DNA from: Amoebophrya sp. A120
Taxonomy: Eukaryota; Protista; Dinoflagellata
DNA length: 64,000 nt
Assembly: GCA_905178155.1 (NCBI GenBank)
Contig: CAJINV010000005.1
Coordinates: forward strand, 6,936,580 to 7,000,579
Direction of reading: 5' to 3'
Shown here piece by piece: positions 1-63,285 of this stretch. The translations under genes were made by a program, and so were the position numbers. Every line of letters begins with the position of its first letter. Positions within the stretch are counted from its first letter, which is position 1. The notes under the pieces are model-generated. The model worked only from the letters and a program-made list of their open reading frames with translations. It did no database searches and had not been told where the DNA came from.

Positions 1-3000
1 CAACACCGACCACCGTGGATTTGGTTACCCTGAACGGCGACTTGATTGGCGGGTCGCTACTGTTTATGCACTGCAAAAGTATCGTACTCGTAGTAATTGC
101 ATTTATGCATAATTACAAGTCTCTTTCTCAAGGTAAATCAGCATGTCAAATTTAATTTGTAATGCTGAGCCAATTTGTAATGCAATCCAAACTAGTACGA
201 TACTTTTGCACTTCATACTGTTCAACCTGGACAAGGGGAGATCAATCATCGACGTTTGCAATCATCTGCAAGTGGACTACATGTGCCTCGGCAACCACGA
301 ATTCGACCACGGGTTGAAGGAGTTGGAAAACCGGGTGCTAGAATTCCAAGGGAAAGCGTGGTTGAACACGAACGTGCGGTGTAGCTCACCGGTATCCACC
401 ACTGTAAATTTCCCGTACACGTACAAATGCGGTCTCGGCATGACAAAACTTGGCCTCGATCCTAGTTTAGCATGACAAGTTTTACCCTCCAAATTGGTGA
501 AGTTTGTGATGCATCCTTACCCTCCAAATTGGTGAAGTGTTTGGGTGTGGTACGGGAAATTTGTATTGCATAGCCGGACGGAGAAAAAGGAGCGGTTTTG
601 AACAGCATGCCGAGATACGACATTTTGGAAGTGGATGTACCACAGCCAGGACCTTCTACTTCTAGCAATCATGGCACCACTGCTGCAAAGAAATTTCGCA
701 TCGGCCTGGTTGGCGTCTGCACGGCGGAATCCCCGAGTCTCTCCCTGCAGGACCCAACGAAGGAGGGGGTGGAATTTTTAGACCCCTTTGTGGAAACGCG
801 AAAGATCCTCGACGGCGTTTTTTTCTGCAACCATCCGAGTAAGAAGCAGGTCGACGCTATGGGTGTGTGGTCAGGATCGAAATCGTCAAAGTTGAAATAA
901 TTTGTAATGCAGAAATTGCAAGGCATGACGCGCCTGTCTTGCCGGGATGGCAAGTGAGGCCGATTGTGAGCCTGTTTAGGGTTTGAAATAGAGCTGCTAA
1001 AGTAGCATGACAAATTGGAAGATTCCGGTGCTCGGAAAATTTGTCATGCGCCGCTTGATAACTGGGTCGCCGATTGGCAACCATTTTATGCATGGCAAAT
1101 CGTTTGAACTTTGACGATTTCAATCCTGACGCATCCATAGACGCCGTTATTGCCATCACGCACCAAAGCAACGCGGACGACGAGAAGTTTCTAAAAGAGT
1201 TTCCAGAAATCAGCTGCGTCCTGGGCGGCCACGACCACATTCCGTGGCGGGTGTTTTGTGATGGTGGTGCAACTCCTGATAACGCCACCAGCAAGCGAAT
1301 CGCGGTGAAGGCGGGATTGGACTGCGAGGCCGTGGACATTGTGGAGTTTGAGTTTGGTTCCACCGGCTTGAATTTTTCCGGCCACACCTTCGTCTCACTC
1401 GTCGGGCCGGCTGCGGAAAATCTCCTCGATCCGGAAACGGGTGCGGTTCTGCGCCCGAAGTATTTTGACGACCCAGAGTTGCTGGAGAAAATCAAACAGC
1501 ACAAGAAAATCCTCTCTCTGAACGACTTCGCGATTCTGGATTGGCGCGATTACGATACCCTTTTGACCGAGGTGAACACTGCCGCGAAACACGAATCCGA
1601 TCCCTGGACGACCAAAAACATCCGCTCCAAACAGTGCAATTTCTACCATTTGATTGCGAAGTGGTGCAAGGAGGAACTTTGCGGACACTACCGAAACGAT
1701 ATGACAGTGCACAACTCGACGTCCCCCCGCTCATTTGTCATGCAAAAACCCAAATCCATTACCAGTTGCTAGTACCAGTACCTTGTGGCACCGCGTGCAT
1801 GACAAATTCCGGAAATCCAAACAGTACTACACTTTGCGCATGAACTTGTCATGCACAGGGTCCTCCTGTGCTGTTGTTCTTGTTTGTAATGGTGTTGATG
1901 CCATACATTACAAATGAGGGGGAAGGGCAGTTGAAGTTGTGCACTTTCATAAACGAGGCGGACGAAACCGGGAAACTGGCCTGGAGTAACTCCATCATGA
2001 TTGTCAACAGTGGGCAGTTTCGGGCCAACGTGAATTACGACTACAGCGAGAAGCTGAGTTTTATAGAATGCAAAAGCATCGTACTAGTAGAAATCGCATG
2101 ACAAATTCCCTGAGCATGAAAAATTGAATTTGTAATGCGGATTTATGTCAAGAAGGAGATTTGTAATGCGTGACTGCGATTACTACGACTACGATACTTC
2201 TGCAGTGGATAAGTTTTACGGATCTGCAGAAGGAGCTCGCGTTTAACAACAGACTAATGAAGCTCCGGATCGTCGGGAGGGATGTCGCTGCTTTACTGCA
2301 AGAATCGGAGGCGACCCGGAAGGGGCAGGGCGGGTATTTGCAGTATGACCCACGGAGCGTGGAGGTAGAAGTCACCGAAGAAGTGGGTGATGCGCCTGCG
2401 CTTACCATCAAATCGATCAACAACATTCCGTATCAAATGCAAATATGTCTGGGTCTGGAGGAATGCAAGTTTGTCATGCTTATCTGGCATGACTCGAGAA
2501 TCTGTGTTGCATAGGCACGCAAGAGCCCTCTTAACTGTCATGCGAAAAGGCAGTTTTCCATGCGGAATACATAAGACATGGCAGCCACAAAATTTGTCAT
2601 GCATAGCTGCGTATTGCGGCGCGGTTATCATTCACTTTTAGCATTTTTAACCCAGACATACTTGCAATTCATATTCCGTTCAGTCCAGACACGGAATACA
2701 CGGTCATTTTAGTCGTGAAAATGCTGCAGGGCATGGATAACTGGGAGATTCTGAAGCGGTATGGGTTGAAAATTGAAGAAGAGTTGAAACTGCCACTGAA
2801 CAGCATTCTGGACTCCGCCCCGGGCATGTTGGACTTGTGCCTGAACCACCTGCTAAAGGAGAAGTGGCGTCAATTGGTGAAACTGTTCGAGTCGACGGCG
2901 AATTACATGCCGAGTTTGACGAAAAGCTTGGCTATGGCGAAAGTGGAAATGCGAGACGAGGAAGCGACAGAAGGACGAGGCACAGCAACAACTACCAAAG

Positions 3001-4116
3001 ACCTACCAACTGCAAACATGTCTGGGTCCTCTGGATGAGTGCAGATGCCACCCAGAGCGTCTCTCTGGCATACAGGGGCCAGTAATATCACAGGTCGTTC
3101 TTCGAGAGCTTCGTTCACGAGAATGCCTAGTACTCTGCATGAGATGACATTTGCTCTCACCATGGCCAAAAGGAAACAACTTTTGATGTACTTAAGTTTG
3201 TGCAAGATCACAGATTTTTGTGATTTCGTGATGTGGAACTGGAATGCGCATGAGCACATGATGTTGCAACCTTCGCCTTCCAGGAGACCCTGAAGACATA
3301 TTTGCAATGCATAAGACATCACGTTCGACGATTTGCGCAAGGTGGCGTCGCAGTACGCGGCGGAGCGGCGGAAGTTGATGGGAGGACAGATGATGAACCA
3401 CACGGGAACAAACGAGGACGAAGATGATATCCTGTGTGAAAACATCCCCACCCCATAGTCAAGTTGTTGGAATCTCTGCAACACAGATCCAGGAGTTCTG
3501 GGAGCCACGCATGACACGTTGCACTCCGTAGTGTAGTGCAGGCTAGCGAGGACAGCCGCATCACAAAGTATCCGTCTGCTCATCCTGTTTACAGTATTAC
3601 AAATACCAAAACACGACTAAAAATGCCCATCATGGGGATGCGCATCACAAATGTTCCTGTCGTTGCAGATCTGCATGACAACTCTGGGGTGATCGGGACG
3701 TTGTTGCACAGGATAGATGACGAAGAGGAAACGCTTCTCCTCCGGATGATGTTCGTATGACAGTGCACAACTCACCCTCGTCCCCCTGGCCGTCATTTGT
3801 ATAGCATGAACGGCAATACAACCATCTCCATCAGCAAGAATGCCGGTTCTGCATGGCAAATGATTTGCGCTGGAGTGTCGTGCTATTATTTGGACTACCA
3901 GAACTTATCATGAAAACAGTGCCAAGAGGCAAAGGGTGGACTCGGTATTTTGCAAGACAAATGAGGGGCGGGAGGGGGGGGGGTGGTGCACTGTCATAAT
4001 TCGACCTGTTAGACGTGAATAAGGACGGGGTCGTGGACCAGAAGGAGCTGGAGCAGTTGTGCAGCAGTCCGAAGCAGAGCCAACACCGGGGAACGGTGGT
4101 GGTGCATCATTCTTGA
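1..4116 (+). CDS. 5'-nucleotidase/apyrase-like calcineurin-type metallophosphoesterase with C-terminal EF-hand (5' partial; 9 introner introns)
   Basis: Removing 9 elements plus one TSD copy each gives a continuous frame with NGDLIGGS, LGNHEFDHG, WLNTN, VDAVIAITH, VLGGHDH, NSGQFRA, FTDLQKELAFNN and FDLLDVNKDGVVDQKEL; TGA at 4114-4116. Confidence 0.85.
65..217. mobile_element. Introner family A (TIR core GCAAAAGTATCGTACT)
   Basis: TAT..ATA; TSD CTGTT/CTGTT. Confidence 0.85.
393..572. mobile_element. Introner family B (TIR core AAATTTCCCGTAC)
   Basis: TAT..ATA; TSD ACCGG/GCCGG. Confidence 0.85.
858..1139. mobile_element. Introner family C (TIR core GTCAGGATCGAAATCGNCAAAGTT)
   Basis: TAT..ATA; TSD GACGC/GACGC. 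Confidence 0.85.
1700..1951. mobile_element. Introner family D (TIR TATGANAGTGCACAA)
   Basis: TSD AACGA/AACGA. Confidence 0.85.
2062..2211. mobile_element. Introner family A
   Basis: TSD AGTTT/AGTTT. Confidence 0.85.
2431..2673. mobile_element. Introner family E (TIR core TGTCTGGGTCTGGAA)
   Basis: TSD TTCCG/TTCCG. Confidence 0.85.
3004..3313. mobile_element. Introner family E (diverged)
   Basis: TAC..ATA; TSD AGACC/AGACA. Confidence 0.75.
3428..3715. mobile_element. Introner family F (TIR core GAAAA..CCCCA)
   Basis: TSD GATGA/GATGA. Confidence 0.85.
3756..3998. mobile_element. Introner family D
   Basis: TSD GTTCG/ATTCG. Confidence 0.85.
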
Positions 4117-5049: not shown

Positions 5050-6004
5050 ATGGGCGAACTCTCCGAAGAGCAGTACAAGATGTGCTGCGACGCTTTCGCG
5101 GCCTTTTCCAGCCAGGAAGGTCTGCTGACCCCCTTCGAGTTGAATAATTGCATGCGCTCGCTCGGACACGTATGCATTGTAAATTTCGACCCGTACATGT
5201 ACTTACAAAATGCATGACAAAGAAATATCGCTAATTTCAGTGTACAACTTGTCATGCTAGACTAGGATTGAAGGCAAGTTTTGTGATGCAGAGACTGCAT
5301 TTGTACCTGTGCGGGAAATTTACAACTGTGGATAACACGCCCCGGGATCCGAGGAATTCGCAAAAATTCTGGAAGAACACGACTTATACTCGAAGGGAGG
5401 GGTATAGGATTTTGGGTTGACGTCGAGCTCAAGCACCATGTTGTAATATTCGCATGACAGTATGACTGGTGAAGATTCACACGCATTTATGACAATAAAG
5501 ACATAAGTTGTACTTAGCAAATACTAAATGTAAATCAGGTGTCACTCCAAGGCTTCCTCTACATCATCGCCCAGAGAGAGGCGTCAACAACGTTGAAAAC
5601 GGGGCTACTCGACGTGTTTAGCAAATTTGACCGAGACCAGAACGGATTTGTAGACGCGGAAGAAATCAAGGAGGCGATGATGACGCTGGGCGAAGAGCCG
5701 TTTACAGAAGACGAGTGGGTGAAACTGCTGGAGGAGTACGAGATGCCGCCCGACAATCTATCCTGTGCAAATAAAGCATCGTACTCGTACGAATCGCAGG
5801 CATGCTACACAAATTTCTTTTTCAAGCTATTCAATCTATCAGCATGGCGTATTCCATTTGTCAGCCATTTGTAGCCACGCTGAACCAAAAATTTGTATTG
5901 CAAGATTACGAGGACGAGGAGTGCGATACTTTTGCCGTTCATAAAAGCAAATCGACTACCATCAACTCGTCGAGATTATGACTCGGAAGCACGACCAGCC
6001 GTGA
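5050..6004 (+). CDS. Calmodulin-like EF-hand protein (~152 aa)
   Basis: Exons 5050-5170, 5340-5401, 5539-5758, 5949-6004 total 459 nt: MGELSEEQ..MRSLGHAP..FSKFDRDQNGFVDAEEIKEAMMTLGE..IDYHQLVEIM. Two introners and one GT-AG intron (5402-5538). Confidence 0.85.
5171..5334. mobile_element. Introner family B (opposite orientation to 393-572)
   Basis: TSD ACACG/ACACG. Confidence 0.85.
5759..5943. mobile_element. Introner family A (diverged)
   Basis: TSD CAATC/AAAGC; removal restores EF-hand spacing. Confidence 0.75.
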
Positions 6005-6319: not shown

Positions 6320-7694
6320 AGCCCCGTTGTGTATACTGTTGTTCAGGAAAATTTTTGTTTTGTGCTGGCCTTCTTTGTGTTGGCCCTGGTTTCCCGCGTT
6401 TTTTTCGCACGACATCCCCGGGTCAAATGTGCACGAGAGGGCGTTGGCCCTCAAAATAAAAGCGCCGGGCGCGCCGCGGCCTTTTGGGTAGCCTAGGTAG
6501 CGAAGAGAATGAACGGCCGACGGCCTCCCATCAATCAGAACCCCGGCCCGGGCCCGGAGTAGATGCAGCCGGCGCGCAAAATAGAGAGGCCACTCTCATG
6601 GGCGTGCGTGCTTGCGAAACAAAGACAACCGCCATAATTTTGCGCGCGGCCCCGGCGTGTCTCGCGGGCGCCCCTTGGGGCGGGGCCGGCTTGGGGTGCG
6701 TGGTCCGCGGAAAAGTTGTGCTTCCTCCCTAAGCCACAACTTTTCCCGGAGTCCGGTCGTGTTTGAGGGTAAAAAGAAGCTGCACAACGCCCAAGGGGGG
6801 CAGAAAAAGACAGCCACAGGTCGTGCGTAACCTAATGCAGCATGGTATGGCTGCGAGGAAAATTCGCACGCAGCGATACCATGCAGCATAACCTCACGCC
6901 CGATGCTACCGGGAGTGCGAATATTGCTGCTTGGGGATAGCATCGCGCAAAAGGTTACGCCCGACGGTGTGCAGCGGCTGTGGCAGCCGCTTTTGGCGAA
7001 CGGGGGGATTTGTAATGCGGAGAAGCGCCCGGGTTGCGGAGAACCCGAGGGTCCGGGCTTTCCCCTTTTCCCATTTTACCCACAACCCGAACCCCGAGCT
7101 CTGGGGAGCCCCGCACTCCGCATGTGTAATGCGGAGAGCCCGACCTTTCCGCCCATTGCATTTGTAATGCGGAGAGCCCGGCCTTTGAAAGGTCGGGCTC
7201 TCCGCATTACAAACGCAATGGCTATGGGCACCTTTCCGCACTTGTAATGCGGAAAGGCCACCTTTCCGCATTTGTAATGCGGAGAACCGGAGGCGCGGTC
7301 TTTCACTTTCTCCAACCGGAGGAAGCGGAGTTTGCGAATTTGTGGCGCGGCTTTTCTCCGGCGGGGAGAAAAGCTGCATCTGCATCCGGCTGGTTTTCCA
7401 ATTTTGTAATGCAGTTTTTCTCCACCCGACCGCTCGAGCGGAGAAAAACCGCGCGCAAAACAAGTAGCTTTGCGCGCGAAAAAACGGGCACAAGCCCTAT
7501 GAAAAGCGCAGCTTCTACCCCGTCCGGAGCGGGAAAAGTTGTAAGCGGGTGGAGCCCCATTTGCTTCCTCATTCTCGTAGGTCGCTAGTTTCATTCTCGT
7601 GGCACTATATGCTCTTTCTGGGGTCAAATTGTATTTTGTCCGTTCATAGCCCCGTTGTGTATCTATACTGTTGTTCAGGAAAATTTTTGTTTTG
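6320..7694. mobile_element. GC-rich ~1.3-kb segment bracketed by a ~43-bp direct repeat
   Basis: AGCCCCGTTGTGTAT(CTAT)ACTGTTGTTCAGGAAAATTTTTGTTTTG at 6320-6362 and 7648-7694; internal array of TGTAATGCGG and a palindrome at 7161-7213. Confidence 0.5.
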
Positions 7695-8892
7695 GATATT
7701 AGAGAGATGCGACAGCTATACGCAGATGAAAGTCGAGGCGAATTCGAACACTTGAACCTCCGCAAGTAGATCCAGCACTCCTGCTGTACGCGCAAAAACT
7801 TCATCTTTTGCAGCGACAGGAGAAGAAGCACTAAAAGTTTTTCTCAAGATCACTGCCGAGAAAGTCTTTTAACTTTCTCCATCTGCTGATGTTCATAGTA
7901 CACCCGCATCAGCGCCGGTAGCAGCAGCGTTGGTTTTTTTTCTGCATCGCGTTTTTATGTTGCGGCATAGTTCTTGCTGATAATTTTTGCACCTCGCAGG
8001 TACTTCTACTCACAGTGAGATAAACGAACCGGAAATTTCAAATGGCAATTGAATTGACAAAAAAAACGTAGAAACGACGTGAGGATAGGCATTGTTTCGT
8101 AAATGTCACTTAGTTAAAAACCGGAGCCGTTTGAAAAATACCAAATATGATAGTGTCAGAATAGTACTACTGTATTGAAATAGAGCATCAAGTTGGACTT
8201 CGACTTACCAGCTAGTACGTATAATCTCGTGAATTTTTGACGACAATAAACTCTACTTCTATCTCAGCTTCATTAAGCTTGTTTATCCCTTCTGCAGTAT
8301 TTTTGCGAAAATCGAAACGAAAAGAAATTGAAATCACACATAAAAAAATGTCAACGCCTTGCTTCTACATGTTCTTTCTCCAACAAATGAGATACAAGAA
8401 AGGCGGACCAAGAAGTTCCTTTATCGGCGACTTTTTAAGGTTTTAGCAATATTATTTTACGATATTTTTTTAAGGTTTTATTTTGCGATAATTTTTTTAC
8501 GATTTTTTAAAAGCTACTTGATTTAAGTAATGAATTCCGCTCCGTATGGTAAATATACTGCGACAACCAAAATCGATGTGGTACTACGCACTGCAAGCCG
8601 GTTGACGACTCTCACACCCTTCCTGTGAAGGTTTTTCCGAGGAACCAACTTGGCGCGGCTCGCACGAGTAAAAATCGAATAAGACGAACGAACTCCAGCC
8701 AGGAGGTTGTATAGCTGGAGAAGCTGTATCACCAGCGTCCGTCGGGCGAGGCGGCTGGTGTGCAACTACGCATCAAGTACAGCGTGAAGTGGAGTTAGGA
8801 ATAAATTATCCAAACACTATATTAAACGCGGACGAAGAACCGCGACCTAAGCAGAACCGTAGAGCCGACCTTCCTGGAGGTGGAAGTGGAGA

Positions 8893-11800
8893 ATGGGACT
8901 ACTTCTGCTACACCGACATAACAACGCGACGAGGCGAAGTAGTTGTAAAACCAAAGAGATTTCTTGTCTCCATCAGCAATGTTTTCAACTTCAAAACACA
9001 AAGAGACCCTGCTCCTGGACAAGGACCACGAGATCAACATACTCAATAATTTTTTCTTTCGCATTTTTAAAACGAAAACTAAGCAGTCGCAGTCGTCCAC
9101 CACCAGGCTTGTTCTGTCACTTCGGAACACCAAGACGTGGGATAGTTCTTCTTTGTGTAGTCCTAGTACCTTTCCTACAACTTCTTATTTCTGTTACCGG
9201 TCTCAGAGCTGCTGCTCCATCATCTCCATCTTCCAGCAAGAAAGGACATCATCAGCGTCGACCAGGCCAGGACTTTCCTCCAGGGAACAAACACCAAGGG
9301 AACCACGACCGTGCTGAAGGTTCGTCTTCTTCCGCTGGGGCATATAGAAGTAATTCCCAGCGCCAACCACTGAATCTTCAATCTGGGGTAGTTCATCTAG
9401 AACCTCCTGGTGGACCACACGCACACAATGACGTGCAAATTGTCCAGCGCCAAGTGCTGGAAATGGCGCAGCACAGGGATCATGTTGACGAATCGGGTAA
9501 AAAAACGGCAGGAGAGCATCTGCATCACCGTGGCGGTGATATTTTTGGTGCAAGATCCCCGTCCAATATTCTCGATGATGATGCTCAAAACCACGACGAC
9601 ACCACCAGAGAAGATGAAATAGCAACACACGATCGAGTTTACGCGCAACAAGAGCAGCTGCGCCACCATGTCGAGCCCCTCGACATTCAAATCACGTGGG
9701 AAACGCGGTCGCACGCGAAGTTTTGCTTCATCTACACTGCGAAGCTGAAAATCAAAAAAGAAAAGAAGCGAGGAGCCCGGAAGCGGAAGCGGACCATTAT
9801 GCCCTTGGGGGAAGAGGAGGAGGGGGATCAAGATCAGGACATGACTTCTTCTGGGAATAATTATTTCGGAGGGCTACCACGACAGGAGGATGCTTTCGCG
9901 GACCACATTGCCGCTGACCAGGAACTCGCGGCGCAGTACGAAGCATTGGAAACCGATTTGCAAAAAGACCTCGAGATGCTTAACGTGATGCAAAAATCTA
10001 GGGCGGAAGCAAGAAAGAATAGATACGGAAGACACGACAATCACCAAGATCCTCAGAAGTATAAGGGGCAACAACAGCATCAACAAGCAGCCGCGAGCAG
10101 CAGCGCAGCAGATGGGTCGGTGCACCGCGGGATTCTTCGGGGAGGAGCGTCCTCTAGTAGTACTTCGCAGCACCCGCTGCAGGTGGATCCTGTACTCAGC
10201 GAAGAGCAGTTCCACCAAAGAGCTTTAGAGCTCCACGAGCGGATTGCGCAGAAGAAGCTGCAGCTTGAAAAGTTCTTGCACAGGGATCATCAGGCATCTT
10301 CATCTTCTGCCGATCTTCAACAGGTTGTTGATCAACATCGATCAGCTGCAAGGAGCAACAGCAAAACTTCGGGGGGTCATCACCAGCATCATCAAACCCA
10401 CCACCACCCGACCGAGCAAGTGACCGTGTGTCAGCAGTACCGGCGAGTTCGGCAATACTCGACCCGCACCCATGGGGAAGTCTTTCCCTCCCCTGGACAG
10501 CGACTATCACAAGAAAAGAGGGTTACAGTTACACCTTTGTTGTAACTTCAGCAACACAAATTTTCTCTGTGTGGCAGAGAAAACTTGCAATGCAGAAATC
10601 CTAAGGGAAAACACGTACGAAATGAAGTTCGAAAGCATTTCTTGCATGACAAAGGTTGTCTGTCTTGCGGCTCTTACGACACAACCTGTATACTGTAAAC
10701 ATTTTTTTCTCACGATAGCGACGGAAGAAGGTCCACTACCCGCGGAAGCCGGACATATGAGAGTGCACAAGAGCCCCCCCCTGCCCCTCTTTTGTCATGC
10801 AAAACTCTGAGAAATCCAAGCGCTGCGCTGTGGCACTGTTTGCATGACAGATTCCGGAAGTGGCCCAGACAATATACTACAATAGGCGCATGAACTTGCC
10901 ATGCAAAAGCGCGACGTGTGCTGGTGTTTGTATTGCTATTCATGCCAACATATTACAAATGAGGGAGAGGGGAAGTAAGTTGTGCACTTTCATAGGACCT
11001 GAAGACGGTCCACAACGAGATGAAGAGCAAGGCGCAGATCACCGTTGACAAGGCCCTGGCGCCCACCCTGCCCGGCGCGCGCGAAAATGCGGGGTTCGGG
11101 TGCGCGATTGAGATGCTGGAAAGGCGAGAGAAATGGCGCAGCAAGTGGCTGGATGCGTGCGGCTTCAGCGATTACGATCCGAATGTGATGTATGGGAGTG
11201 TCAGGATCGAAATCGACAAAGTTGAAATAACTTGTAATGCATAAAATGCATGACGCGAAATACGTGCGTTGCAGAGCAGGCAAGTGAGGCCGATGGTAAG
11301 CCTGTTTGGGGTCAGAGCTCGAGCTGCCAAAGCAGCATGAGAGAATCAGTCTTCTTTGCCTAAACAGCATTACAAACTGGATTTAGGCACCTCCAAGATT
11401 TGTCATGCGTCACTTGGAAACTGGGTTCCAACTGGCATCCATTTTATGCATGACAAATCATTTCAACTTTGTCCATCTCGATCCTGACAGTTGCATATGA
11501 TGCTCAAGAAGGTGTTGCACATGCACGACACGCAAGAGGAACAGGACTTCGATGATGATACGTACTTTCTGTTCACGCAAGAGGGAAGCTCCGCGATGAA
11601 CCGGGAGTTTTTTGAGTTGAACCACCGGAACCGGCTATCCTATGGAAAAACGTCCCCACACCATAGTCAAGATGGGAAATCTGCAACACAAATCCCCAAG
11701 TTTTGGGAGTTCTGCATGACAAGTTTCCATCTGCATTGTAGTGCGGACTGGCAAGGAAAGCCGCATGACAAAGCCATTTTCTGATCCTGTTTGCAGCATT

Positions 11801-14800
11801 GCAAATGCCAAAACACGACTGGAAATGCCTCTCATGGAGATGCGCATTACAAATGCTTCTGTCATTGCACATGTGCATGACAGCGCCGGGGTGGCGATGT
11901 TTTTACACAGGATGTCGGCACATCGTTGGGAATTACGAGTCCTCCTTTCCGGAGAACATCGAAATCCGCACCGACCGGAAAGTGGGGAGCCATCCGCAGA
12001 AGCAGTACATCAGCGATCCGGCCAAGCACAAGGCGGTGGTCCGAATCTCGTTGAGTGGAAACGGTTGGTGGGTCCCGACAGTTGGAAAAAAAACGAAAGC
12101 GGCTGCGCCACAAAAGATGACGAAGGTGTTGAACGACCAGGATGTTCTTGACAAAACTGCTAGTACCGCTACTGAAGCAGTAGCAGAGGCCGCGCCACCT
12201 CCAGTGCTAGCGCAAGAACTACATCAAGTCGAAACCGGTCGAGGACAAGAAGAAGACTTTGATTTCTTGCTATCCGAGATCGATCAAGATGACTCCAAAA
12301 CCAACCGCGAGAAGGGGTTGATGAAAGAAACAGAGCGGCTCTTCACGGTGAAGAAGGAATTCGATGACGAGGCGGAGCGACTTTTGCGGGAAAAAGAAAA
12401 GCAGGCAGAAATTGCGAGAATACAGGAAGAGCAACAACGTCTTCTGGAGCAGACTGCACAAGGTAGTAGAGCAGGACTAGTACAGGAAGATGAAGCACAT
12501 CAAAGCTACTCCTCGGAAGAGCAACGAGTTTCCAACTCGACCGCGGGTGCAGCTGGGGGAGGTGCAGCAGCTGGAGGTGCTGATGTTTCTGGCAACGGTA
12601 CTCGGACCTCAGCGGCTTTGGCGGGCTCACCACACGGAGCGGGAAGGGCAGCAGCAGGGGCGATGGACGTAGAGGAGGGTGGTCAAGAAGGGCAGCACGA
12701 CGAGGATCGGTCGGTTATTGAACAAGACCAAGCACGCAGACCTCGGGGAGATGATGCTGGACACCAGCAGGACCAAGTTATGCACCACAATCAGCCGGAG
12801 CCAGATATCGGCGTCCAAAGGGCGGGGCAGCTGAATCTAGACCTACTAGAACAGCAGCAGGATAAAAACGCGGCCCCCGCGCGCAGCGGGACGCCACTCA
12901 CACTGAACGACGACGATGAACACAGAATCTGGATGATGCAGACGACGGATGAGAGCGGCGGGGAAAATCCAAACCAACCAGGAGGTGGAGGTGTTGGCAG
13001 ATCGACGAACAGCTCCGGAGTTGCAGGGGAGCAGGAACAAACAGTTCCGGTGATCGTCGCATCATTGATGGAAGAAATGAAGGGCAAAGAGGTCCTGCCA
13101 GAAACCGTTGCGGACGATGGGAAGAGCACGCACCGGGAACACCCTACGCAAACGGGGGCGAACCGCGGCCACAAAGTGCGGAACTGCCTCGCGGAAATAC
13201 ACGAGCAAATGAGGAACGTCAGCTTCCTATGAACTGCAAAAGTATCGTACTTCTACTTGTAAGTGTTGCAATACAAATTAGCTCAGCATGACAAATGGAA
13301 GTTGCCCTGCTGATTTAGCTTGAAAAAGAAATTTGTCTTGCATGACTGCGATTAGTACGAGTGCGATACTTTTGCACAGGATACCTCCTCGCGGCCATGG
13401 AACGAGCGAACGAGGACGCGATAAACGTGAGTTTCAGCTACCCACCGACCCCGGACCGCTGCTCGCCCGATATTACGGGATATCAAATGCAAATATGTCT
13501 GAGTCTGGAAGAGTGCAGATTTTTGTCATGCTGTTTTTGCATGACACAGCCGGTCTGTCATGAAAGCCCTAGCATCACAGATTCCGAGACCGTGCCGCAA
13601 TGCTTATTCCGCATGACAAATCCTTCTTTTTGGTGACAGGAAATGGGCACCTCTTGCTGCCTATGCATGAGAGATTTGCGCGTGCAGTGGAATTCGCATC
13701 ACAAGTTTGGACCCTTCCAGACCCAGACATATTTGCATTTGATACGGGACGAACAGACGCAAGCTCCCGGATCGCACTGCTGCTGTATCCTGAGAAAAAA
13801 GTGTTACAGTTACACATTGTGTTGCAGGCCAACCAAGACAGACAAGCTCTGTCATGCCTGAAGATATGCATAGGAGCCTCCTTTGCCATTCATAGGTGAA
13901 GGTGTTTTCCCGTAGGATTTCTGCATTGCAAGTTTTTTCTCTCATGCAGAGAAAGTTGTGTTGCTGAATTGACAACAAATCTGTAACTGTAACACTTTTT
14001 TCGCGCGATATGCTGGCTACCACTCCGACTACAAACGCTGACGGGAAGCCGAGAAGGCCTCGGTCTTTCGTTCCCAAAATTGTGATGATCGAGCCCCCGC
14101 CGGCGGAGAGAGAACCAGAACACCCTGCGGAAGCTGCAGAAGACCACAAGTCGAACCAAGAAAGTAAACAACTTCAAGAAACCACTGCAGGAGCGGAAAT
14201 AAATGCTGCCGCGGCGCAGCAGCACGACGCAACTACAGCAACAGGCGAGCAGGGGATGATGTTGAAAGGCAAGCGACAGCGACAGGCAAGTAAAAACAGC
14301 ATGAGTGAAGGTCAGCGGCGGGGACAGCAATCGCAGGATCATGTTGGGGAGCATTTGCTACACGATCAGCAGGATCCGGACTCACCAGAAGAGGAAATAA
14401 GTTATGGACAAAACAAGCAAGCCGCACAAGAAGAAGGACCACCACAGCTGCACCAGCAAATAACGAAAGTGGTCCCCGCGACGACAACTTCCTCCTCACC
14501 GAAGAAAAGCCGTGGCGGAGGAGAACAAGGACTCCTTCACATTCCAGCCGCTAACACACATTCCGTCTCAAACAGCACCACGGCTGGGCTGACCACGCTC
14601 GTGAACCACGGGGCAATGACTGGTGTAGTGGAAAACGCGGGATCCCGAGACAGTCACGTGAGTGGAAGATCCAACATGACGAGCGGCAACGCCGGACGGG
14701 CGGGAAACGCAGTGGCCGCTGCGGGAGTGGTAGTATGCATTGCAAAAGTATAATATCTTCGTCCTACTAGTACTACAGGAATTCGAATTGCAATACGAAC

Positions 14801-35723: not shown

Positions 35724-36422
35724 ATGCCCGGAGGGCATCTTCCGCCCCGGGCAGCAGGCGACCCACCGACAACGCAAAGTAGTAATGCCAATTATGACCA
35801 TGCAGCTGATTATGGTGCTGCAACCAACAACTGGATCCCACCGCATGCCGGTACTAACCAAGCGCAACAAGAAGCAGATCATGACACGACGCCGACCAGA
35901 TCCGCTGCAACATCTCTCTCGCAACAACTTTTCGCCCTCAACCGACGACTCCGGAACTTTTTTCACACCATACTCCGCCTGTACGGGATTTTGTGCCTCC
36001 ACGTAGCGTTTCTGGTCTCCATGCGGACGAGCTACGAATTTTTGGTGAAGATGGAATACGGAGCGGAATTCTTTTATGGAAGTGTCAGAATCGAAATCGA
36101 CAAAGTCGAAAAATTTGTGATGCACAAAATCGATGCCAGTTGGAGCCTCAGTTTCTAAGTGGCGCGTGACAACTTTCGGGACCACCAAAATCCAGTCTGT
36201 CATGCTGTTTGGACAAAGCAGGCTGCTCCTGTCATGCTACTCTGGCAACATATTACATTTTACATACCCCTAAACAGGCTTCCAATCGGTCTCATTTGCC
36301 TGCTCCCCAATACAGGCGTCGCGTGCCCTACATTTTATGCATCACAAATTGTTTGATTTTGTCGATTTCGATCCTGACACCCCCATATCTTTTTTGTCGA
36401 TTTTTTGTACCTGGCAATGTAG
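35724..36422 (+). CDS. Small hypothetical protein (~126 aa) with a hydrophobic C-terminal part, or an upstream ORF of the BEACH gene
   Basis: ATG at 35724. Removing introner 36075-36387 gives ..AEFFFVDFLYLAM* (TAG 36420-36422). No recognisable domain. Confidence 0.4.
36075..36387. mobile_element. Introner family C
   Basis: TSD TCTTT/TCTTT. Confidence 0.85.
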
Positions 36423-36540
36423 ATGATGATAGATCATGAGCCAGTTGCTTTAGGTGTCAGGGAATAAAGACTCTAGCCGCGCGGCTTCTCCACGACGTGC
36501 ACCACGTGCAGGCTTCGCGAAGACCCCCTTCTAATCGAAA

Positions 36541-52257: not shown

Positions 52258-53677
52258 ATGGTCGTACATCTATCGAAGAGTAGAGTCGGCAAAGCCACAG
52301 CCGTGTTGGCACTCCTGTCGCACACCGCTGTCTATGCCGATCCAGCCCCGGTACAACAACCGGCGGAAAAGAACGGAAGGCAACTACCTGAAATAAACAC
52401 CTCGGCGGACAATCGTATCCTGAAGCCGAGACTTCGTGGGACGTTGCGGAAAAGAGAACTGCTGGAAGAGGCAGCTGCATCAAACCTGCTTCCAAGTAGC
52501 AACTTGATGCAAAAGCAGGAACTTCTGCAAGAACTACAGCTGCACAAGAAAGAAAACGACGGCGCACTCGAAAAATTACAACGAACCTCCGAGCAAGAAC
52601 TCTCCCCCAAGCCGCGCCTCCGCGGCACCCTCCGGAAGCGAGAACAGGAGCAGGCCGCGGCGATGTCGGCGGCTAAAGTAAAACTACAGGACAAGTTGGA
52701 AGGCGAAGGGAACAAGCCGACGGCTGCAAATGATGATGCAACAGCAACTGCAAGCAATTTGATGCAGGTGATGAAACAGCAGGAGCTGCATCTTCACAAA
52801 CACGATCACGGAGTCGTGCCACCGCAGCAGCTCCAAGACCACCTCGTCCAAGCCGGCTCGAACGAAAACATTTCACAAGACCACCTTGTTCCCAAGCCCC
52901 GGCTCCGCGGCACTCTGCGGAAGAGAGCGGAGAGGGAGATGAAGCTGAAAAGCGCGCCGGACGGTGGTGCGGAGACGAAAGAACTACTCACAGTCCCTGC
53001 TACGTCGGACGACAATGTGACGGAACAGCATGAAATAAACACCAAAGTCACCGCCAGCAGCACAACTTCAACTTTGCAAAAGCTGGAGCAACGGGAGCAG
53101 CAAAAACACGACCTTCAGCAAAACCACAAGTTCGAAACATTTATGCTGGAATCAAAGAGTTATCTCAAGGAGAAATTCGAAGAACTCTCGTCGTCCATGG
53201 GCAAGAAATTGGACGAAATTGTCGACGATTACGTGCAGCCGTTTTTCAAATCCGCGGAAGAAAAAACCGTGGAATTGGCAAACGAAGCGCTCACTGGGGC
53301 CGTGCAATCTTTCACGGAAACCACGACAAACGGCCCGGATGAGGGCAGCTTCTGGGCGAGGTTTCAGAAACAAGAATTCGCGGAGGTATGACAGTGCACA
53401 ACTCCCCTTCCCCTTCATTTGTCATGCAATATACCCAGTCCACCCTTGCCTTTGCCACTTGGCACTGTTTGCATGACAAGTTCTGCTTCTGGTAGCTTAA
53501 ATAGCACTACTATAATGCTCTAGTGCAAATTTGTCATGCAAAACCACCAATCTTGTTGATGCTTGTATTGCTGTGTATGGTATACAGATGAGGGGAAGGG
53601 GGAATTGTGCACTCTCATACGCGGGCGGGTTCGGAGATCAGATCGGGGACGAGGTGGTGGCACTGGGGCGGGTGTGA
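52258..53677 (+). CDS. Putative secreted protein with three KPRLRGTLRKR repeats
   Basis: Signal-peptide-like N-terminus (MVVHLSKSRVGKATAVLALLSHTAVYA). Long ORF to 53386, then an introner; short last exon ending TGA 53675-53677 (junction uncertain). Confidence 0.65.
53387..53619. mobile_element. Introner family D with displaced TSD
   Basis: CGCGG-AGG-TAT..ATA-CGCGG. Confidence 0.8.
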
Positions 53678-54783: not shown

Positions 54784-57700
54784 ATGACCGAGCCGGCTCC
54801 TCCGAAGCCGAACAAGCAGCACGTGCACATCGTGGCGGAGATCGGCATCAACCACAATGTATCCTGTACAAACGTATCGTACTCGCATTGCAATCATGCA
54901 TTACAAATCCCTTTCTTAAGCCAAATCTGCATTACAAATTTCATTTCTCATGCTGCAGAAATTTGTATTGCATTTATACGAATACGATTTTTTTGCAATG
55001 CATACAATGGGGACATTGAACTCTGCAAGAAGCTGATCATGCTCGCGAAAACGGCCGGGTGCGACTCCGTGAAAATCCAGAAGCGAAACCCCGATGTCTG
55101 CGTTCCGGAGGACCAGAAGCTATCAAATGCAAAAATGTCTGGGTCTGGAAGAATGCAAGACTTGCCATGCATATTTCTCATGACCCATGATGCCTGTAAT
55201 GCATTACCTAGCATCGCAGACTTTTACAGGGCTTCCTGATGCACCTTCCGCATGAGAAATGCCCCCTCCGTGTAGCACAAATTGCACCCCTCTTGCTGGT
55301 CATGCAATACAATTTTATTTAGAGTCTACAAACAGCATGACAAGTTGCAATCTTCCAGACCCAGACACTTTTGCAGTTGATAGAAACAGAAGATGCGCGA
55401 CACGCCGTGGGGGCGGATGACGTTATCAACTGCAAAAATGTCTGGGTCTGGAGGGATGCGAACTTGTAATGCTAGCTCTCCATACCCAGGAAATCTGTAT
55501 TGCATAGCCAACAATGAAAGTCGCAGCCTCTTTTGTACATGCAAAAACGCAGTATCTCATGCGGATTTCCTATGAGAAAGGGAAAGCGTTCTCAAAAGTT
55601 GTCATGCTGTAATGCATGCGGAACTGTTTCCATCATCCACATTTTAGCATCACAAGTTTCCAGGCCCAGACACTTTTGCAATGCATAGACGTATCTGGAA
55701 TACAAGTGGAAATTGGAATTCAACGAAGAGCAGATCAAAGAGCTGATCGAGTACAGCAAGTGGATCGGGATCACGTTTTTCGCTTCCGTTTGGGACATAT
55801 GCATTGCAAAACTGACGTACGTACGTAGAAATTGCATTACAAATTTTCTCAAGAAGAAAAATACAATTTGTCATGCGTGTTCAGGTAGAGAAAGAGAATT
55901 GAACTTGTCATGGATAGCTGCAATTACTACGAGTACGATACTTTTGGAGAGAATAGGACAAGGAAAGCTGCGATATGATGTGCAAGTACGGCGGATTGTC
56001 GAAAATCCCCTCGGCTTTGATCACGGATTTGGAACTCTGCGAGTACGCAAGGAAAAAGTTCGAAACGCTGATCATTTCGACCGGTAAAGTTGAGAAGAGT
56101 TACGCGGTGATAGACATTGACATAGATGATTTAGGTTTTTGCATCCGCGAAACAGAGGCATTGGCTTGTGATGCCTCTGCATGATAGATCAGTCCAACAG
56201 CTTTACTGACCATTTTCGAATGTTTCTGTATAAGGAGTACTCCTGCATGACAAACAGCACAATCCAAAACTCTTTAGAAAACAGGTATGTCCACCGAAGA
56301 GGAGATCGAGGCCTGTGTGAAGGTGTGCGACCCGGATATCATCATGCACACGAATTCGACCTACCCGTGCCCCTACGAGGATTTGAACCTGCGGTACATC
56401 ACGCACCTGAAGGACAAATACCCGGAAAAAATCATCGGCTACTCCGGCCATGAGTACGGATTGGTTACCACATTTTGCGCGGTCGCGCTCGGCGCGCTGT
56501 ACGTCGAGCGACATATCACGTGGGATAGGAACATGTGGGGGTCTATGGGAGTGTCAGAACCGAAATCGTCAGAGTTGAAATGATTTGTCATGCACAGATG
56601 GATGCCAGTTGGAACCCAGTTTCCAAGTAGCGCATGTCAAATTTTGGCGGTCCTTCAATCCAGTTTGTCACGCTGTTTAGGCAAAGAAGACGGATTTTCC
56701 CATGCTACTTTAGCAGCTCGAGCTCTAACCCCAAACAGGCTTACAATCGGCCTCACTTGCCTGCTCTGCAAGACACATACCCCGCGTCGTGCATTTTATG
56801 CATGACAAATCATTTCAACTTTGTCGATTTCAAACCTGACGCTTCCATAGGGTCGGATCAGCTGTCATCCGTGGAGCCGGCGGGGTTGTTGAAATTAGTG
56901 AAGGGCATATGCAAGAAAAAAACTGTGTAAGTGTAACTCTGTAATGCAGAATATGCAACAGATCTACGCCTGTCATGCCACACAGCCACGAAGTCCTTTT
57001 TTCATGTGTGTTTTCCCTTACAAGCCGCGCATGACAGGTTCTCTCTGTTATGTAGACTAAATTTGTGATGCTGTCAGCCAAAGAGAGTTGCACTCACACA
57101 GTTTTTTTCTTGGATAGGGCATCCGGGATTCCAGCGAGTCGTTGGCTTACGAACCATATGGTTTGCTCAAATGTTACAATCTCAAACGTTACAATAACAT
57201 CATCTCAAATTTTCCTGACCGAACATCATGAGTACTGTACAGAGACTTGGGCTTTCGCGATACAAATTTCGCGAGATAATTCTCATGGGGTTGGGAGCTC
57301 CGAAACTTGTCATGCGTGCTCCTGTGGGAGTCGGCCAGATGTTGCGCATCGTGCAACACAAATTCCAGATTCTATGGTATACCGATTTGAGATTGTAACA
57401 CCTGGGCGGGTTATAAACTAGGGCCGAGGATTATGCAACGTAATTTTCCCGTACATGTACAAAATGCATGACAAGCTTCACCAATGTGGAGTGTAACACT
57501 TGTCATGCTAAACTAGGACTGAAGCCCAGTTTTGTCATGCAGAAGCCACATTTGTACGTGTGCAGGAAATTTACTGTGGATAAGGATTCTGTTCGACCGG
57601 GAAAACTCGAAGAAGGTCAGTTTGCGCCCGCAGCTATCCTGTGCAAACGTATCGTAGTCGTATTGCAGTCATGCATTACAAATCTTTTTGTTAAGGCAAA

Positions 57701-57794
57701 TCAGCATTACACCCCCCACGCTGAGGAAATTTGTAATGCATTTATACGAGTACGAATACGATACTTTTGCAATTTATAGCAGCCGAAGAAGTAG
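54784..57794 (+). CDS. neuB: N-acetylneuraminate (sialic/nonulosonic acid) synthase, NeuB family, ~288 aa, no C-terminal SAF domain
   Basis: IVAEIGINHNGD, AGCDSVKIQKR, FFASVWD, KIPSA, IISTGMS, MHTNSTYP, GYSGHE, VERHIT, WGSDQ. Nine introners and one GT-AG intron (56084-56284); spliced length 867 nt. Confidence 0.92.
54860..55004. mobile_element. Introner family A (in-frame, stop-free)
   Basis: TSD CAATG/CAATG; removal restores INHNGD. Confidence 0.9.
55121..55382. mobile_element. Introner family E
   Basis: TSD GAAGC/GAAAC. Confidence 0.85.
55424..55687. mobile_element. Introner family E
   Basis: TSD GACGT/GACGT. Confidence 0.85.
55798..55955. mobile_element. Introner family A (diverged)
   Basis: TSD GGACA/GGACA. 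Confidence 0.85.
56544..56849. mobile_element. Introner family C (opposite orientation to 11191-11497)
   Basis: TSD GGGTC/GGGTC; removal restores WGSDQ. Confidence 0.9.
56908..57116. mobile_element. Introner family G2
   Basis: TSD GGGCA/GGGCA. Confidence 0.85.
57157..57415. mobile_element. Introner singleton family H (TIR core TGTTACAATCTCAAA)
   Basis: TSD AACCA/AACTA. Confidence 0.8.
57432..57582. mobile_element. Introner family B
   Basis: TSD AGGAT/AGGAT. Confidence 0.85.
57635..57778. mobile_element. Introner family A
   Basis: TSD GCAGC/GCAGC. Confidence 0.85.
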
Positions 57795-59385
57795 TGAAGG
57801 CTTGTTTGGCATTTTTGCAGGGGCAACTGGGGGTGATCTCTGTGTGTGTGATTATCTGTAGGGCTACCCAGGAGTGAAAAGAACTTGACAGACCTCGGCT
57901 CTGCCGGCCGTATTAAACTTCAATTCACGGATTCTATCTTGCTGAATTTTTACCTGATGAGGTCGATTCTGCGATCATTCACATCTATTTTTTCAACGCT
58001 AATTTGCCCTCTTTATCTTTTCAAAGAAATGTTGTTAGTAATTGTGATTTGATTTTTTGACAGAGACGCAGATGAAAGATTGAGATATTAGTTGATGGTA
58101 GCGATTATATGTAACTGCTTTCACAGAAGGTGGAGTTGTTAGCCCTTTTTGTCGTCCTCGAGACGTCTCCTGAAACCGATGAAAGTAATATGAAAAAAGT
58201 TTGACGAATGAGCAAAAGCGCGTGCTGGCGCACAGTCTGTCAGGGTCGCGTTGGCCGCGAGCTTCCGTGGTCGTAGTGGTACTTGAGAAAAAAAAAAACC
58301 GAAAGCAAACTGCCCTTTTGTCGCTGTTCAGCTGATGTTCTTGCTCATGATGTGAAACAGATTCGATTGGTATTCGACAAGACTATCGATCGGTTTGTAC
58401 CGTACCTCTATTCGAGAATATCGGTTGTCTACTTCCGTGGTCGTACACATAGTCTTCAAGCAGGCGAATGATTATCGGTCTCGTCTTCTAATTGAAAGTC
58501 GTATTCGTAATGATACTTCCTTGTTTTTCCTCGTATTATCGATTGCTTTTTCCTCGTACGATGTTGTATAGTGGTATAAGCATTTTATTTCCTCGTACTA
58601 CCGGTCGTGTGGCTCTGATCGATCATCGGTCTGATTGTGGTATTCGTTCAACAACTCACATTTCAATATTTCTTCGGTTCGTCACACGGCGCTGCTGCTC
58701 CGGCGCAGAAGTTTTTAGGCGACGGTTGCGTTACTTACGTACGAGTTTTCACTTCGTATAGCTTTATTGATCGAACATGACGTGTACTAGGGCTTTCCTG
58801 TGCTAAAAATATTTCCATTCTGGTCTGCTGGCTTTTCTGCGCAGTGCTTTGACAGAAAATCAAAATAATTCCTCCGACAGGTTTTGGTGCGAAAACTTTC
58901 TTGACTTGTTGGTCGTCCCCACGTCTGCAAGCCCTGAAAGAACACAGAAGTACTACCGCATTTAACATTTCACGACTTCGATTTTTCGAACAACAAACTT
59001 AAGCTTTTTTCTTCTATAGTACGAGACAACTAGTACAATGAACTGTAGTTTGAGCAGTCACCTTGATCTTCTATCTTTTACAAACAAACAAAATCACTAT
59101 CCCTAAATACGCCTGCTGCAACGTTAGCTACGACGTGCGAAAAGGTGTAATCACTGCTGCTCAAAAGTAGCGCTGTTTCCTGCTCAACAGAAGTACTTCT
59201 TGTAGACGAGTATTTCAATTTCTGTTGCTTTTCATCCAGAAGTAGATCCACGTGAAGTTGTAGCCTTCACTGCTGTGTCACCACCAAGGAACATGACTTT
59301 CACGACTCGAGGCGCTCCTGTCGGACCACGTCAACAGCGGCCCGCAGGTCGTCCCGCAGGTCGTTCCAGCATGATCACCGCGAGC

Positions 59386-59618
59386 TATGAGACTGCACAA
59401 CAACTCTCCCTCGTTTTCAACTCTCATGAAAAACACTAACTCCACCCCTTGCCTTGTGCCACTAGCTACCATGCATGACAGATTTATTCCGAAGCCGAAA
59501 CAGCACTAAAATCGGCCGTGAATTTGATGTCATGCACCAAAATCTGCATCTGTGTGAGCACTCGTGTTGCTGTGGATGCCATCCAAATGAGGGGGAGGTG
59601 CAGTTGTGCACTCTCATA
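59386..59618. mobile_element. Introner family D
   Basis: TSD CGAGC/CGAGC. Confidence 0.85.
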
Positions 59619-60426
59619 CGAGCACGACGACGCGTAGAAGTCGTGCTCGCGCCCCCTGGTCGACGTTTCCGGCGTACAAGAAGAGGAGCACCAGAACTAT
59701 GCGCCGCCGGCTATCGTGCGTAAAAACGTCGTCTCCACGCCAGAATCTAGACGGTGACTTTGCAACACAAATCCAGAGGCTTTAGGAATCGCGGATCATG
59801 ACTAGTTTGGCGCTGGTGCAGTGTAATCTTGCCGAGCTAGCCCAGACGCATTTTTACAATAAATTCGCCCAGTTGATGTTCTGATTAGTGCATTGCAGCT
59901 TCCCAAGGGCCATTACGAAACGCCTCTCATATAAGTTGAGAAACATCCTGCGCATACAAATTGACAAAAAAAAATTGCATAACAGCGCTGGAGGGGTGGG
60001 GACGTCTTTGTATAGGATACCGGTTACCTTTGCGGAGGAGTAAGTTCCTGCTTGCTGCAAGTACCGCCGTGCGCGTCGCGATGGTACCAACATGCACGAC
60101 GTCGACCCTAGAAGTGCTATCGCCTGGCCCACGTCTCGTCGGTGCCGTGAACGTGGAGAAAATCAACGCACAGCAGCAATCACAGCAGCAGGGCAATGCT
60201 GGAAACGGCAGCGGCACCACGACGAACACAGCGCAAACTGCGCAGCCGAGCTCGAAGACGAACGAGGGCAATTGCAATGGCGGCGGCTCCTGTATGAAAA
60301 AGCAAACTTCGCATTACTTCAGCTTTCTAATACGTACATCTATCACGAAGATAGCACCGACGCTGCTCTTCTTGCGCTATCCTCTTTGCATCACGTCGAG
60401 GACCGCGAGTGTGAAGGGGTGGCGCG

Positions 60427-61776: not shown

Positions 61777-63285
61777 GACGACACGCCCCAATAACCCCTA
61801 GCAGCCCTCCCCTATGTTGCTAGCAAGATGATGATGATGATGATGATGACCCGTGGTCTCCGTGCTAAGGTGGTCGTGAGGGTCATGGTGATTTTTATGG
61901 CGAGCAGGTGTGTATACATAGGGGTGACGAGACTCGAACGGCTACCGAAGGATCGTTGCGGGAACCGTCGGACAATGTCACTGTATGTCATGCGCGTCAG
62001 CTCGACCATAAAGCGAAGGCAGCACACGAAGATGCGTAGTGCCAGCTCGTCAACAAAGAAGACAGCAGCATCAGGCGACTTGCTGTGCGTCAACTTGCTT
62101 CATCTCTCTTCACAACTTACTAGAACTATATTTATCAGGCTTTGAGCTGATTTTCATTTTTTTTTTACGGCTCAAGTTTCTTTTTTTGGTTTTCTCATCG
62201 GGTTTTTCTTTATCATTCTTATATCTCTTTTGTTCTCCTTCTCCATTTACTACTTTTCCAAAATGCAACGCTTCCATGCCTACTTCACCTCCGCCTCCTC
62301 CTGCGCCACCGCTCTTCTTCCCTGATTCCGCGACCTACATAGCACGTCCCGGCCCCGGGGCCAACGCCGCAAGGGTTTCAGGGTACTAAAGGGTTTGTTT
62401 AGGGTTCTTAACCTGAATTTGTCAGGCTTTGAGCTGATTTTTACGGCGAGCTGGAGTGCAGCTCTTCCCTAAAGTTCTCATGTTTGTTCGGTTCGTCTGG
62501 TGACATAGTACTAATGCTTTGCATCAGGCTTTATTTTTTTTTGATTTTCTACTTGTTATTTATATTTCTGACGATTGCGATTCTAGTGCAAGAATATGAG
62601 CAAGTGTTTCTGTTTAGATTTACATTCCATTTTTACAACTAAAGACCAACAGTGATTTATAATCGTTTTGTGTATCTGTATTAGCCCCTTTATTTTCTCA
62701 CTTCTTTTTTCAACAACGACAGCCCCATGTAAAGATGAAGGCGCCAGCATTCCCCGGGGCGTCCAACTACGAGACGCGGTCACCATGGACCCAAAAACTC
62801 ACGCCCAAAAGTAGCCTCCGCGTGCTCGTGTCTGAATGAAGATGATACAACACTAAAAATCAAGCTCGTGCAAATTATCGCCATCGGGCAAATTGCAAAA
62901 TCTTCCACCTCCATCGTGTTAGCAACATGCTTTGGACGGATGTTCCGGTGGATTCTATCGTGGACAACGATGCCGAGTGCATAACAGAATTCCACGCTTT
63001 TCCTGATCAGGGTAGTAGTGAGCAGCGAAATGATATCCTTCGAAAAGACGTCGCTTCATTCTGATTAGTTCGAATCGCGCATGACAGATTTGCATTTCCC
63101 GTGTGATGCGCATGACAAATTGCATTCTCCCCTGCGCATGACAAATCTCAACTTGCCAATGCAGCACGACTTTTAAGCGCATCACCGCCCAAATTTACAT
63201 CCAGAAATATGGCATGCACATTTGTCGTCTTTGGTCGATGTTGGTGGTCTGCAGTGGAAGGCTAGTAAGGATGTGTTGCAGGTAG

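Follow-up and report, generated by a model that had tools for sequence, protein, structure and literature searches.

How do the tens of thousands of introner elements of the dinoflagellate Amoebophrya sp. A120 move without a clear transposase, and how are they spliced without U1? Published work leaves both points open in its accessible parts (PMC7789003), and all papers below are cited for such parts. We analyzed a 64-kb stretch of A120 DNA (contig CAJINV010000005.1, positions 6,936,580 to 7,000,579), here called the window, in which the short motif TGT[ACG]ATGC recurs inside introners. The motif is real, selected, and geometrically ordered, and it is a new feature of a known class of elements. 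We predict that one shared DNA-binding protein docks on it, which we consider very probable.

A phased motif inside introner elements

The introners of the window were first called by a motif-blind finder, which demanded TA[TCG] ends and a match of at least 4 of the 5 duplication bases. A few were added by hand, giving 62 short elements in total (Table 1). The elements have terminal inverted repeats (TIRs) with TAT...ATA ends and a 5-bp target duplication alongside. The family-weighted end profile reads TAT, seven looser bases, and an A-run (A at 0.68-0.90 in positions 11-15). A scan for family C ends gave a wider sample of 159 loci (L001-L159) from one assembly, 499 kb when merged and biased to family C. 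Run on these loci, the finder gave 361 elements, compared with none in 256 kb of shuffled sequence. The duplication is perfect (5 of 5) in 325 of 387 elements and has no sequence preference. The 417 short elements of window and loci form 28 clusters, 16 of them with two or more copies.

The exact motif occurs 195 times in the window (105 on the plus and 90 on the minus strand), where 100 dinucleotide shuffles of the window gave 7.83 ± 2.71 and at most 15. By class, with hand-curated boundaries and a few elements added after motif matches had been seen, TIR elements hold 167 exact motifs in 14,532 bp vs 4.3 expected (11.5 per kb), 15 GT-AG introns hold 16 in 2,599 bp vs 0.55 expected (6.2 per kb; 8 on each strand), intergenic and untranslated regions hold 12 in 16,759 bp (0.7 per kb; 7 of the 12 in one cluster at 7011-7405), and exons hold none in 27,461 bp. 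One site counted as intergenic (44090) was later placed in a Sec61-alpha exon. The enrichment over background is therefore clear, and the earlier note, made from the sequence of the window, had rightly seen by eye that the motif is rare in exons and long intergenic tracts. The motif is not confined to introners, as GT-AG introns and an intergenic cluster carry copies too.

At least one exact motif is present in 58 of the 62 short elements of the window, at least two in 51, and both orientations in 41. When the loci are included, 406 of 417 short elements contain the exact motif and 416 the broad form. Recurrence across all introner families and in both orientations, as claimed before, thus holds for the short elements, but not for a 2.65-kb TAT...ATA element (32011-34659) without any copy. 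The two copies noted in a 109-bp minimal element were found as described (Table 1).

From the flanks and one-base variants, we derived the wider consensus AAAYYTGTVWTGC. The fourth variant TGTTATGC, with T at the V position, occurs only three times in the window and 31 times in the loci, which contain 1,541 exact sites. T is avoided at this position in both the ATGC and TTGC forms of the motif. Two explanations for the missing T were rejected, namely an adenine-methylation context (VATB) and avoidance of terminus-like TATGC, because TGTNTTGC, where neither applies, is short of T as well (A 19, C 10, G 20, T 2). The motif may resemble the animal Sox-Oct composite site, which we take to be a coincidence. 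A search of Rfam gave no matches. Viral contigs had no match to the family C end and six isolated matches to the pair pattern, none of which aligned to elements.

The geometry of the motif is rigid, which is new beyond the earlier note. Same-strand pairs of exact motifs in the window lie 31-32 bp apart in 27 of 93 cases (null mean 1.8, max 9 of 2000), which corresponds to three turns of B-DNA at 10.5 bp. A general 10.5-bp periodicity was ruled out, as no such pairs occur at 10-11, 20-22, or 41-43 bp. Divergent pairs peak at 35 bp (11/42) and convergent pairs at 47-49 bp (9/52). The loci reproduce these peaks, with 98, 55, and 42 same-strand pairs at 31, 32, and 33 bp, and add a convergent peak at 15-16 bp. 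A tandem 31-32-bp pair is found in 15 of the 16 multi-copy families and, at consensus level, in 13 of 16 (null 2.9, max 9 of 5000). Opposite-strand pairs at 14-17 or 45-49 bp, ranges picked after viewing the data, make up 20 of 43 vs 8.7 expected. Sites may therefore alternate in orientation at intervals of 1.5 turns, a pattern from which the 35/18 layout of families A, E, and F departs.

The spacing is also fixed relative to the element ends. At 11 of 32 family ends, the distance from the tip to the first site is 32-36 bp; at 18 it is 41-47 bp, and at 3 it falls elsewhere, with no case at 37-40 bp. Two narrow ranges thus cover 29 of the 32 ends. Distances in single copies are more scattered than these family-level values, and site-to-end distances in GT-AG introns are scattered from 14 to 171 bp. 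The tip of family F elements, and more loosely that of A and C elements, looks like a motif copy that points outward, with the next site 31 bp away; this is not seen in the remaining families.

Candidate proteins at the motif

In our reading, the motif is an internal site that non-coding TIR transposons conserve at regular spacing. The candidate binder would be a multimeric protein that binds double-stranded DNA, most likely the mobilizing transposase or its partner; we put the chance of this reading at about even. The earlier note had proposed one shared trans factor of any of several kinds. The shared factor itself is supported by a motif that is non-ancestral, selected, fixed in spacing, and indifferent to direction, whereas a splicing factor that binds single strands is disfavored.

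In the proposed mechanism, tandem sites 31-32 bp apart would point to one side of the helix, and a protein complex would be placed on the element ends by first sites that lie roughly three or four turns from the tip. One transposase could then mobilize all families in trans. Elements that lose their sites would stop multiplying, and hence every successful family would keep them. The terminal hairpin would be the main basis of splicing. The leading candidate would be an integrase-like DDE enzyme, judging from the published A120 family 38 with like ends and duplication. This family is listed as "Ginger, 5-bp TSD (target site duplication), TA/TA termini" (PMC12130899 supplement file 8) and has an integrase-like open reading frame; we liken it to the present elements by description only. 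A role in mobilization is favored because the geometry is tied to the tips, because family members rarely lack the site compared with singletons, and because most GT-AG introns of the loci do without it. The exact motif is kept by 398 of 405 family members vs 8 of 12 diverged single-copy elements, and the other four singletons have still kept their ends.

Several observations weigh against a mobilizing protein. The 2.65-kb element has TAT...ATA ends and a 5-bp duplication but no motif; therefore, such ends can move without the motif or use another enzyme. A transposase domain was found in 0 of 16 frames of the two long repeats and in 0 of 112 long loci frames, and putative transposases were found in A25 only and not in A120, according to the accessible part of the genome account (PMC7789003). 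The exact motif also occurs in 10 of the 12 GT-AG introns of the window that are bridged by contigs of runs X3-X6 (two samples of one study, none recorded as RNA; that they are RNA is a guess, and we call them RNA-like). In these introns, it sits at scattered positions and on both strands, though they have no TIR. GT-AG introns match elements over 23-47 bp only (3 of 16), and neutral relics would probably have lost the motif. Finally, even the closest pairs have a ratio of motif to spacer differences of about 0.4-0.5, a value that continuous selection by the host would account for just as well.

The strongest alternative is that a host protein (perhaps a domesticated transposase) that binds double-stranded DNA labels the DNA of introns and aids co-transcriptional removal, and that introners carry arrays of its sites to be tolerated in exons. 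We regard this as possible, though on the doubtful side. It explains the GT-AG introns of the window and the motif-free nested element better than a transposase does; the sole TAT...ATA element inside another intron lacks the motif. One bridged intron (45780-45931) even carries a motif pair 32 bp apart (45809/45841), and 14 of 15 GT-AG introns of the window score above shuffles at p<=0.05. Outside the called elements, 6 of 21 same-strand pairs in the loci lie at 31-33 bp. The coding-like flanks of 298 of 353 loci elements and the U1 small nuclear RNA undetected in A25 or A120 in the accessible account (PMC7789003) also agree with a host mark.

In the loci, however, only 7 of 45 GT-AG introns predicted without regard to the motif contain it (12 matches in 7.6 kb; Fisher p 2e-5 vs the window), and they do so regardless of the distance to an element (5/30 near, 2/15 far). 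Two bridged introns lack the exact motif, as do some diverged exon-inserted elements (a point against the host mark if they are spliced), and the site-to-end distance is fixed in elements only. Strain, expression level, or prediction error could lie behind the difference between window and loci; the contrast (10/12 vs 7/45) is cleanly explained by neither a transposase nor a host mark. A second GT-AG predictor gave seven candidates in the window, six of which overlap the 16 known introns. A first predictor was unspecific, gave no enrichment (19/161; 1.06 vs 1.07 per kb), and was rejected. The two ends of GT-AG introns pair no better than cross pairs (p 0.37).

Both readings could merge in a domesticated transposase. 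In the most far-reaching form, a sequence-specific DNA-binding protein, perhaps of this origin, would recognize a chromosomal code of phased 13-bp sites and instruct the U1-less splicing machinery which stretch of the nascent RNA to remove. The signal that defines an intron would then lie in double-stranded DNA and be common to introners and ordinary GT-AG introns. We consider this idea rather unlikely.

Conservation, orientation, and removal

The reading of the motif as a relic without present function, left by shared ancestry or by module shuffling, has little probability. Short cross-family alignments of 17-60 bp, tandem-pair spacers that are slightly alike across families (0.32 vs 0.26 shuffled), and the 35-bp divergent layout common to A, E, and F are consistent with it. 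When the motif is masked, however, no match between the 16 multi-copy families exceeds 40 bp, and such matches lie at the TIR ends. Their interiors are unalignable, and the motif is thus not simple shared ancestry, the outcome named in advance as fatal to a shared binding site. In 10 of 10 families, the invariant columns of the motif are better conserved than those of the spacers, and in 9 of 10 they also surpass the TIR columns. Between nearest copies, the motif/spacer difference ratio is 0.27-0.52 in every distance bin, and the motif changes about 2.5 times more slowly. At the V position, C changed to T in 40 cases vs 91 to A and 180 to G, while in spacers C is most often replaced by T. These comparisons support purifying selection on the motif. 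Common ancestry may explain the origin of the motif but not its upkeep, and the idea of a functionless leftover appears largely refuted.

An apparent lack of conservation among the closest copies (0.042 vs 0.040) was rejected as a binning artefact that is gone with independent columns. Mismatch in the duplication, taken as an age marker, gave no difference (0.077 vs 0.070) at low power. Coding and non-coding insertions did not differ (0.076 vs 0.074), and most of the 19 "non-coding" cases resemble short exons.

An RNA-binding splicing factor that reads the motif in pre-mRNA is very improbable. It would fit removal in RNA-like contigs and the slight sense excess of sites (345 sense, 287 antisense, relative to a coding strand taken from a codon model). 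The motif is non-palindromic, yet elements with only sense sites (19) and with only antisense sites (17) both sit in coding frame. No family shows an orientation bias, as every family with at least four oriented copies occurs in both orientations to the coding strand (e.g., C 58 and 47, A 15 and 14). The rigid 31-32-base spacing would also suit a double helix. Because it is indifferent to orientation and has fixed helical spacing, a non-palindromic site of this kind is best read as acting in double-stranded DNA. The argument from strand symmetry in favor of a double-stranded DNA-binding protein, already made in the earlier note, is strengthened by these counts.

Contigs of runs X3-X6 skip elements. 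All 11 counted single-element joints, among those listed, drop the element and exactly one 5-bp copy, which restores the empty site; one further joint, which spans two elements and a mini-exon, was left out of the count. The DNA-like run X1 (one run, contigs) has depth 0 at 9 listed joints and runs through element ends and GT-AG introns. Therefore, removal is most simply splicing. A raw RNA run (X9) had only three reads on the window and was uninformative. The further idea that the motif marks sequence for removal did not gain clear support, as removal is seen only in RNA-like contigs, singletons retain the motif less often than family members, and 38 of the 45 predicted GT-AG introns have none. 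Programmed excision, in which the motif would mark DNA as the internal eliminated sequence signals of ciliates do and the "introns" would be missing from some DNA, would agree with the restored empty sites but is the least probable reading, given that zero depth was recorded in X1 at the joints listed for X3 and X6 and that X1 reads through element ends and GT-AG introns (contigs of one DNA run, of unspecified life stage).

Features of the window and comparison with known systems

Table 1 Introner elements, other repeats, and GT-AG introns of the window (positions within the window; "skipped" and "bridged" refer to RNA-like contigs)
Feature	Size and copies	Coordinates	Strand	Structure and motif layout	RNA-like contigs
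Family A introners	138-193 bp, 18 copies	65-217, 2062-2211, 5759-5943, 13228-13383, 14734-14926, 18636-18789, 23381-23539, 23794-23957, 24968-25134, 31167-31316, 36841-37009, 37362-37509, 40050-40217, 44418-44555, 46608-46755, 54860-55004, 55798-55955, 57635-57778		TAT...ATA, 5-bp duplication; usually <34 >69 >100 (35 bp in the divergent pair, 31 bp in the tandem pair)	five copies skipped
Family B	225-252 bp, 9 copies	1700-1951, 3756-3998, 10756-10994, 18186-18411, 22201-22425, 31413-31637, 41464-41705, 53387-53619, 59386-59618		>35 <82 >132 >164	31413-31637 skipped
Family C	243-310 bp, 13 copies	2431-2673, 3004-3313 (diverged, without exact motif), 13481-13744, 15273-15534, 16192-16452, 17331-17593, 18935-19196, 25233-25501, 25561-25813, 39611-39880, 40814-41065, 55121-55382, 55424-55687		inward tandem pairs at each end (>41 >72 ... 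<184 <216)	two copies skipped
Family D	282-313 bp, 5 copies	858-1139, 11191-11497, 36075-36387, 50763-51069, 56544-56849		tandem pairs 32 bp apart	56544-56849 skipped
Family E	209-225 bp, 6 copies	10505-10717, 13786-14010, 36566-36778, 38422-38636, 46129-46340, 56908-57116		>33 >64 <124 >159	56908-57116 skipped
Family F	139-180 bp, 4 copies	393-572, 5171-5334, 44729-44867, 57432-57582		<34 >69 >101	44729-44867 skipped
G-type and H elements (several clusters)		3428-3715, 11636-11914, 25868-26175, 59712-60019 (without exact motif), 63034-about 63240 (right end uncertain), 57157-57415			
Minimal element	109 bp, in 9-copy cluster	15578-15686	+	long TIRs; one tandem pair 15611/15643 (32 bp, both +)	
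Family A element with GC-rich insert	insert ~770 bp	19221-20156 (insert about 19250-20025)		motifs 20040 and 20075, none in insert	
Long TAT...ATA element	2,649 bp	32011-34659		~120-bp TIRs, TTAAA duplication; nested in GT-AG intron; no exact motif	
Intergenic motif cluster		7011-7412		7 TGTAATGC copies in GC-rich, partly palindromic repeat; spacings 30, 38, 80, 114	
GT-AG introns without TIRs, exact motif present		30594-30709, 30794-30965, 31690-31806, 31891-about 34692, 45059-45273, 45780-45931, 48862-49070, 49222-49403, 50034-50245, 56084-56284	+		bridged
GT-AG introns without exact motif		44098-44292, 45441-45665	+		bridged
GT-AG introns from sequence only		5402-5538, 46396-46570 (exact motif); 38813-38946, 50393-50590 (variant only)	+		

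Family F repeats the layout of family A on unalignable sequence, and one of its termini is a motif variant followed by ATA. The long element has a repeated word of its own (CACTACCG) and internal tandem repeats of 55 and 114 bp. It gave a Pfam match in 0 of 11 frames and has no match in the loci. Its host is a 2.8-kb GT-AG intron of a PSMD8-like gene, which is bridged whole. The GC-rich insert is full of CCTCTCGC repeats, and a copy with 78% identity to it sits within an element of another introner family, similar to family D, in the merged loci; from sequence likeness, the insert may be an element that lands in introners. At the intergenic cluster, TAT...ATA boundaries were looked for and none were found. 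An identical 31-bp direct repeat (6320-6362 and 7648-7694, 1.33 kb apart) lies on both sides of the GC-rich region that holds the seven motifs and may be the boundary of another insertion.

Conventional introns (e.g., 46396-46570, 49222-49403, 50393-50590) have A/C-rich 3' ends in place of a pyrimidine tract, and their 5' parts are often T-rich; 10 of the 16 GT-AG introns of the window begin with GTAT. The host genes of the window encode EF-hand, PSMD8-like, BEACH/WD40, SecY, NeuB, and MORN proteins (Pfam). Introners insert in their exons in both orientations. Though the duplication has no sequence preference, elements of window and loci are found almost exclusively in coding-like sequence (the flank count above is from the loci), and they possibly target exons. 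Between the elements 57157-57415 and 57432-57582, there is a mini-exon (57416-57431), and contigs keep six letters between the two sides of the joint. With elements and one duplication copy removed, the cleaned frames of the window include one of 11,568 bases without a stop. It most likely belongs to the gene at 8863-26442, which had no Pfam match in 8 long frames.

A single phased site common to all families offers a defined DNA bait of about 45 bp, with V-to-T changes and half-turn shifts in spacing as natural negative controls. The common motif also points to a dependence of many "unrelated" families on one protein. Should this protein prove to be a host factor with a role in GT-AG introns as well, intron definition would have a route at the DNA level.

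The window agrees with the published A120 introners in its ends (TAT, seven bases, AAA), short direct repeats, and non-canonical removal (PMC7789003, PMC12130899), and family lengths of about 106-320 bp fit rows 1-40 of the 58 for A120 (PMC12130899 supplement file 8). Unlike these accounts, which in their accessible parts describe terminal and direct repeats only, we find an internal cross-family motif with a spacing rule. Searches for the exact motif strings with introner or Amoebophrya found no publication that reports the motif (subscription papers not covered). "ATGC" is absent from the supplement text of PMC7789003 (sequence logos S19-S25 outside the search), and the motif strings are absent from 12 of the 14 supplements of PMC12130899. 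In one Amoebophrya paper, GCATGACA occurs once in the accessible part (PMC6482013).

A close parallel is with subterminal repeats that bind transposases. Lemi1 binds subterminal repeats of Emigrant, a miniature inverted-repeat transposable element (PMC1636448), and the hAT transposase Hermes needs exactly phased subterminal repeats (PMC10368747). Like these, the motif is a short repeated site inside the ends, in both orientations and in fixed phase to its neighbors and to the tip, and it is conserved more than the flanking spacer. Here, by contrast, one predicted 13-bp site is common to families that number at least 16 and differ in TIRs and interiors. Its copies are spread over the whole element, follow a rule of pairs 31-32 bp apart, and are also present in some GT-AG introns, which are not mobile. 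The TA..TA termini are shared with IS3EU/GingerRoot, and the duplication falls within the 4 or 5 bp of Ginger2 (PMC10045372). IS3EU/GingerRoot usually makes 6-bp duplications (PMC10045372), whereas 11 of 11 joints among those listed show 5 bp here. Its autonomous copies carry a DDE transposase, and no such gene was found in 128 frames scanned (long repeats of the window plus loci). Euglena likewise has abundant nonconventional, non-GT-AG introns with paired ends beside conventional ones (PMC12501133). In contrast to the CDG/CHG code at the boundaries of the Euglena introns, the A120 motif is internal, repeated, and free of direction.

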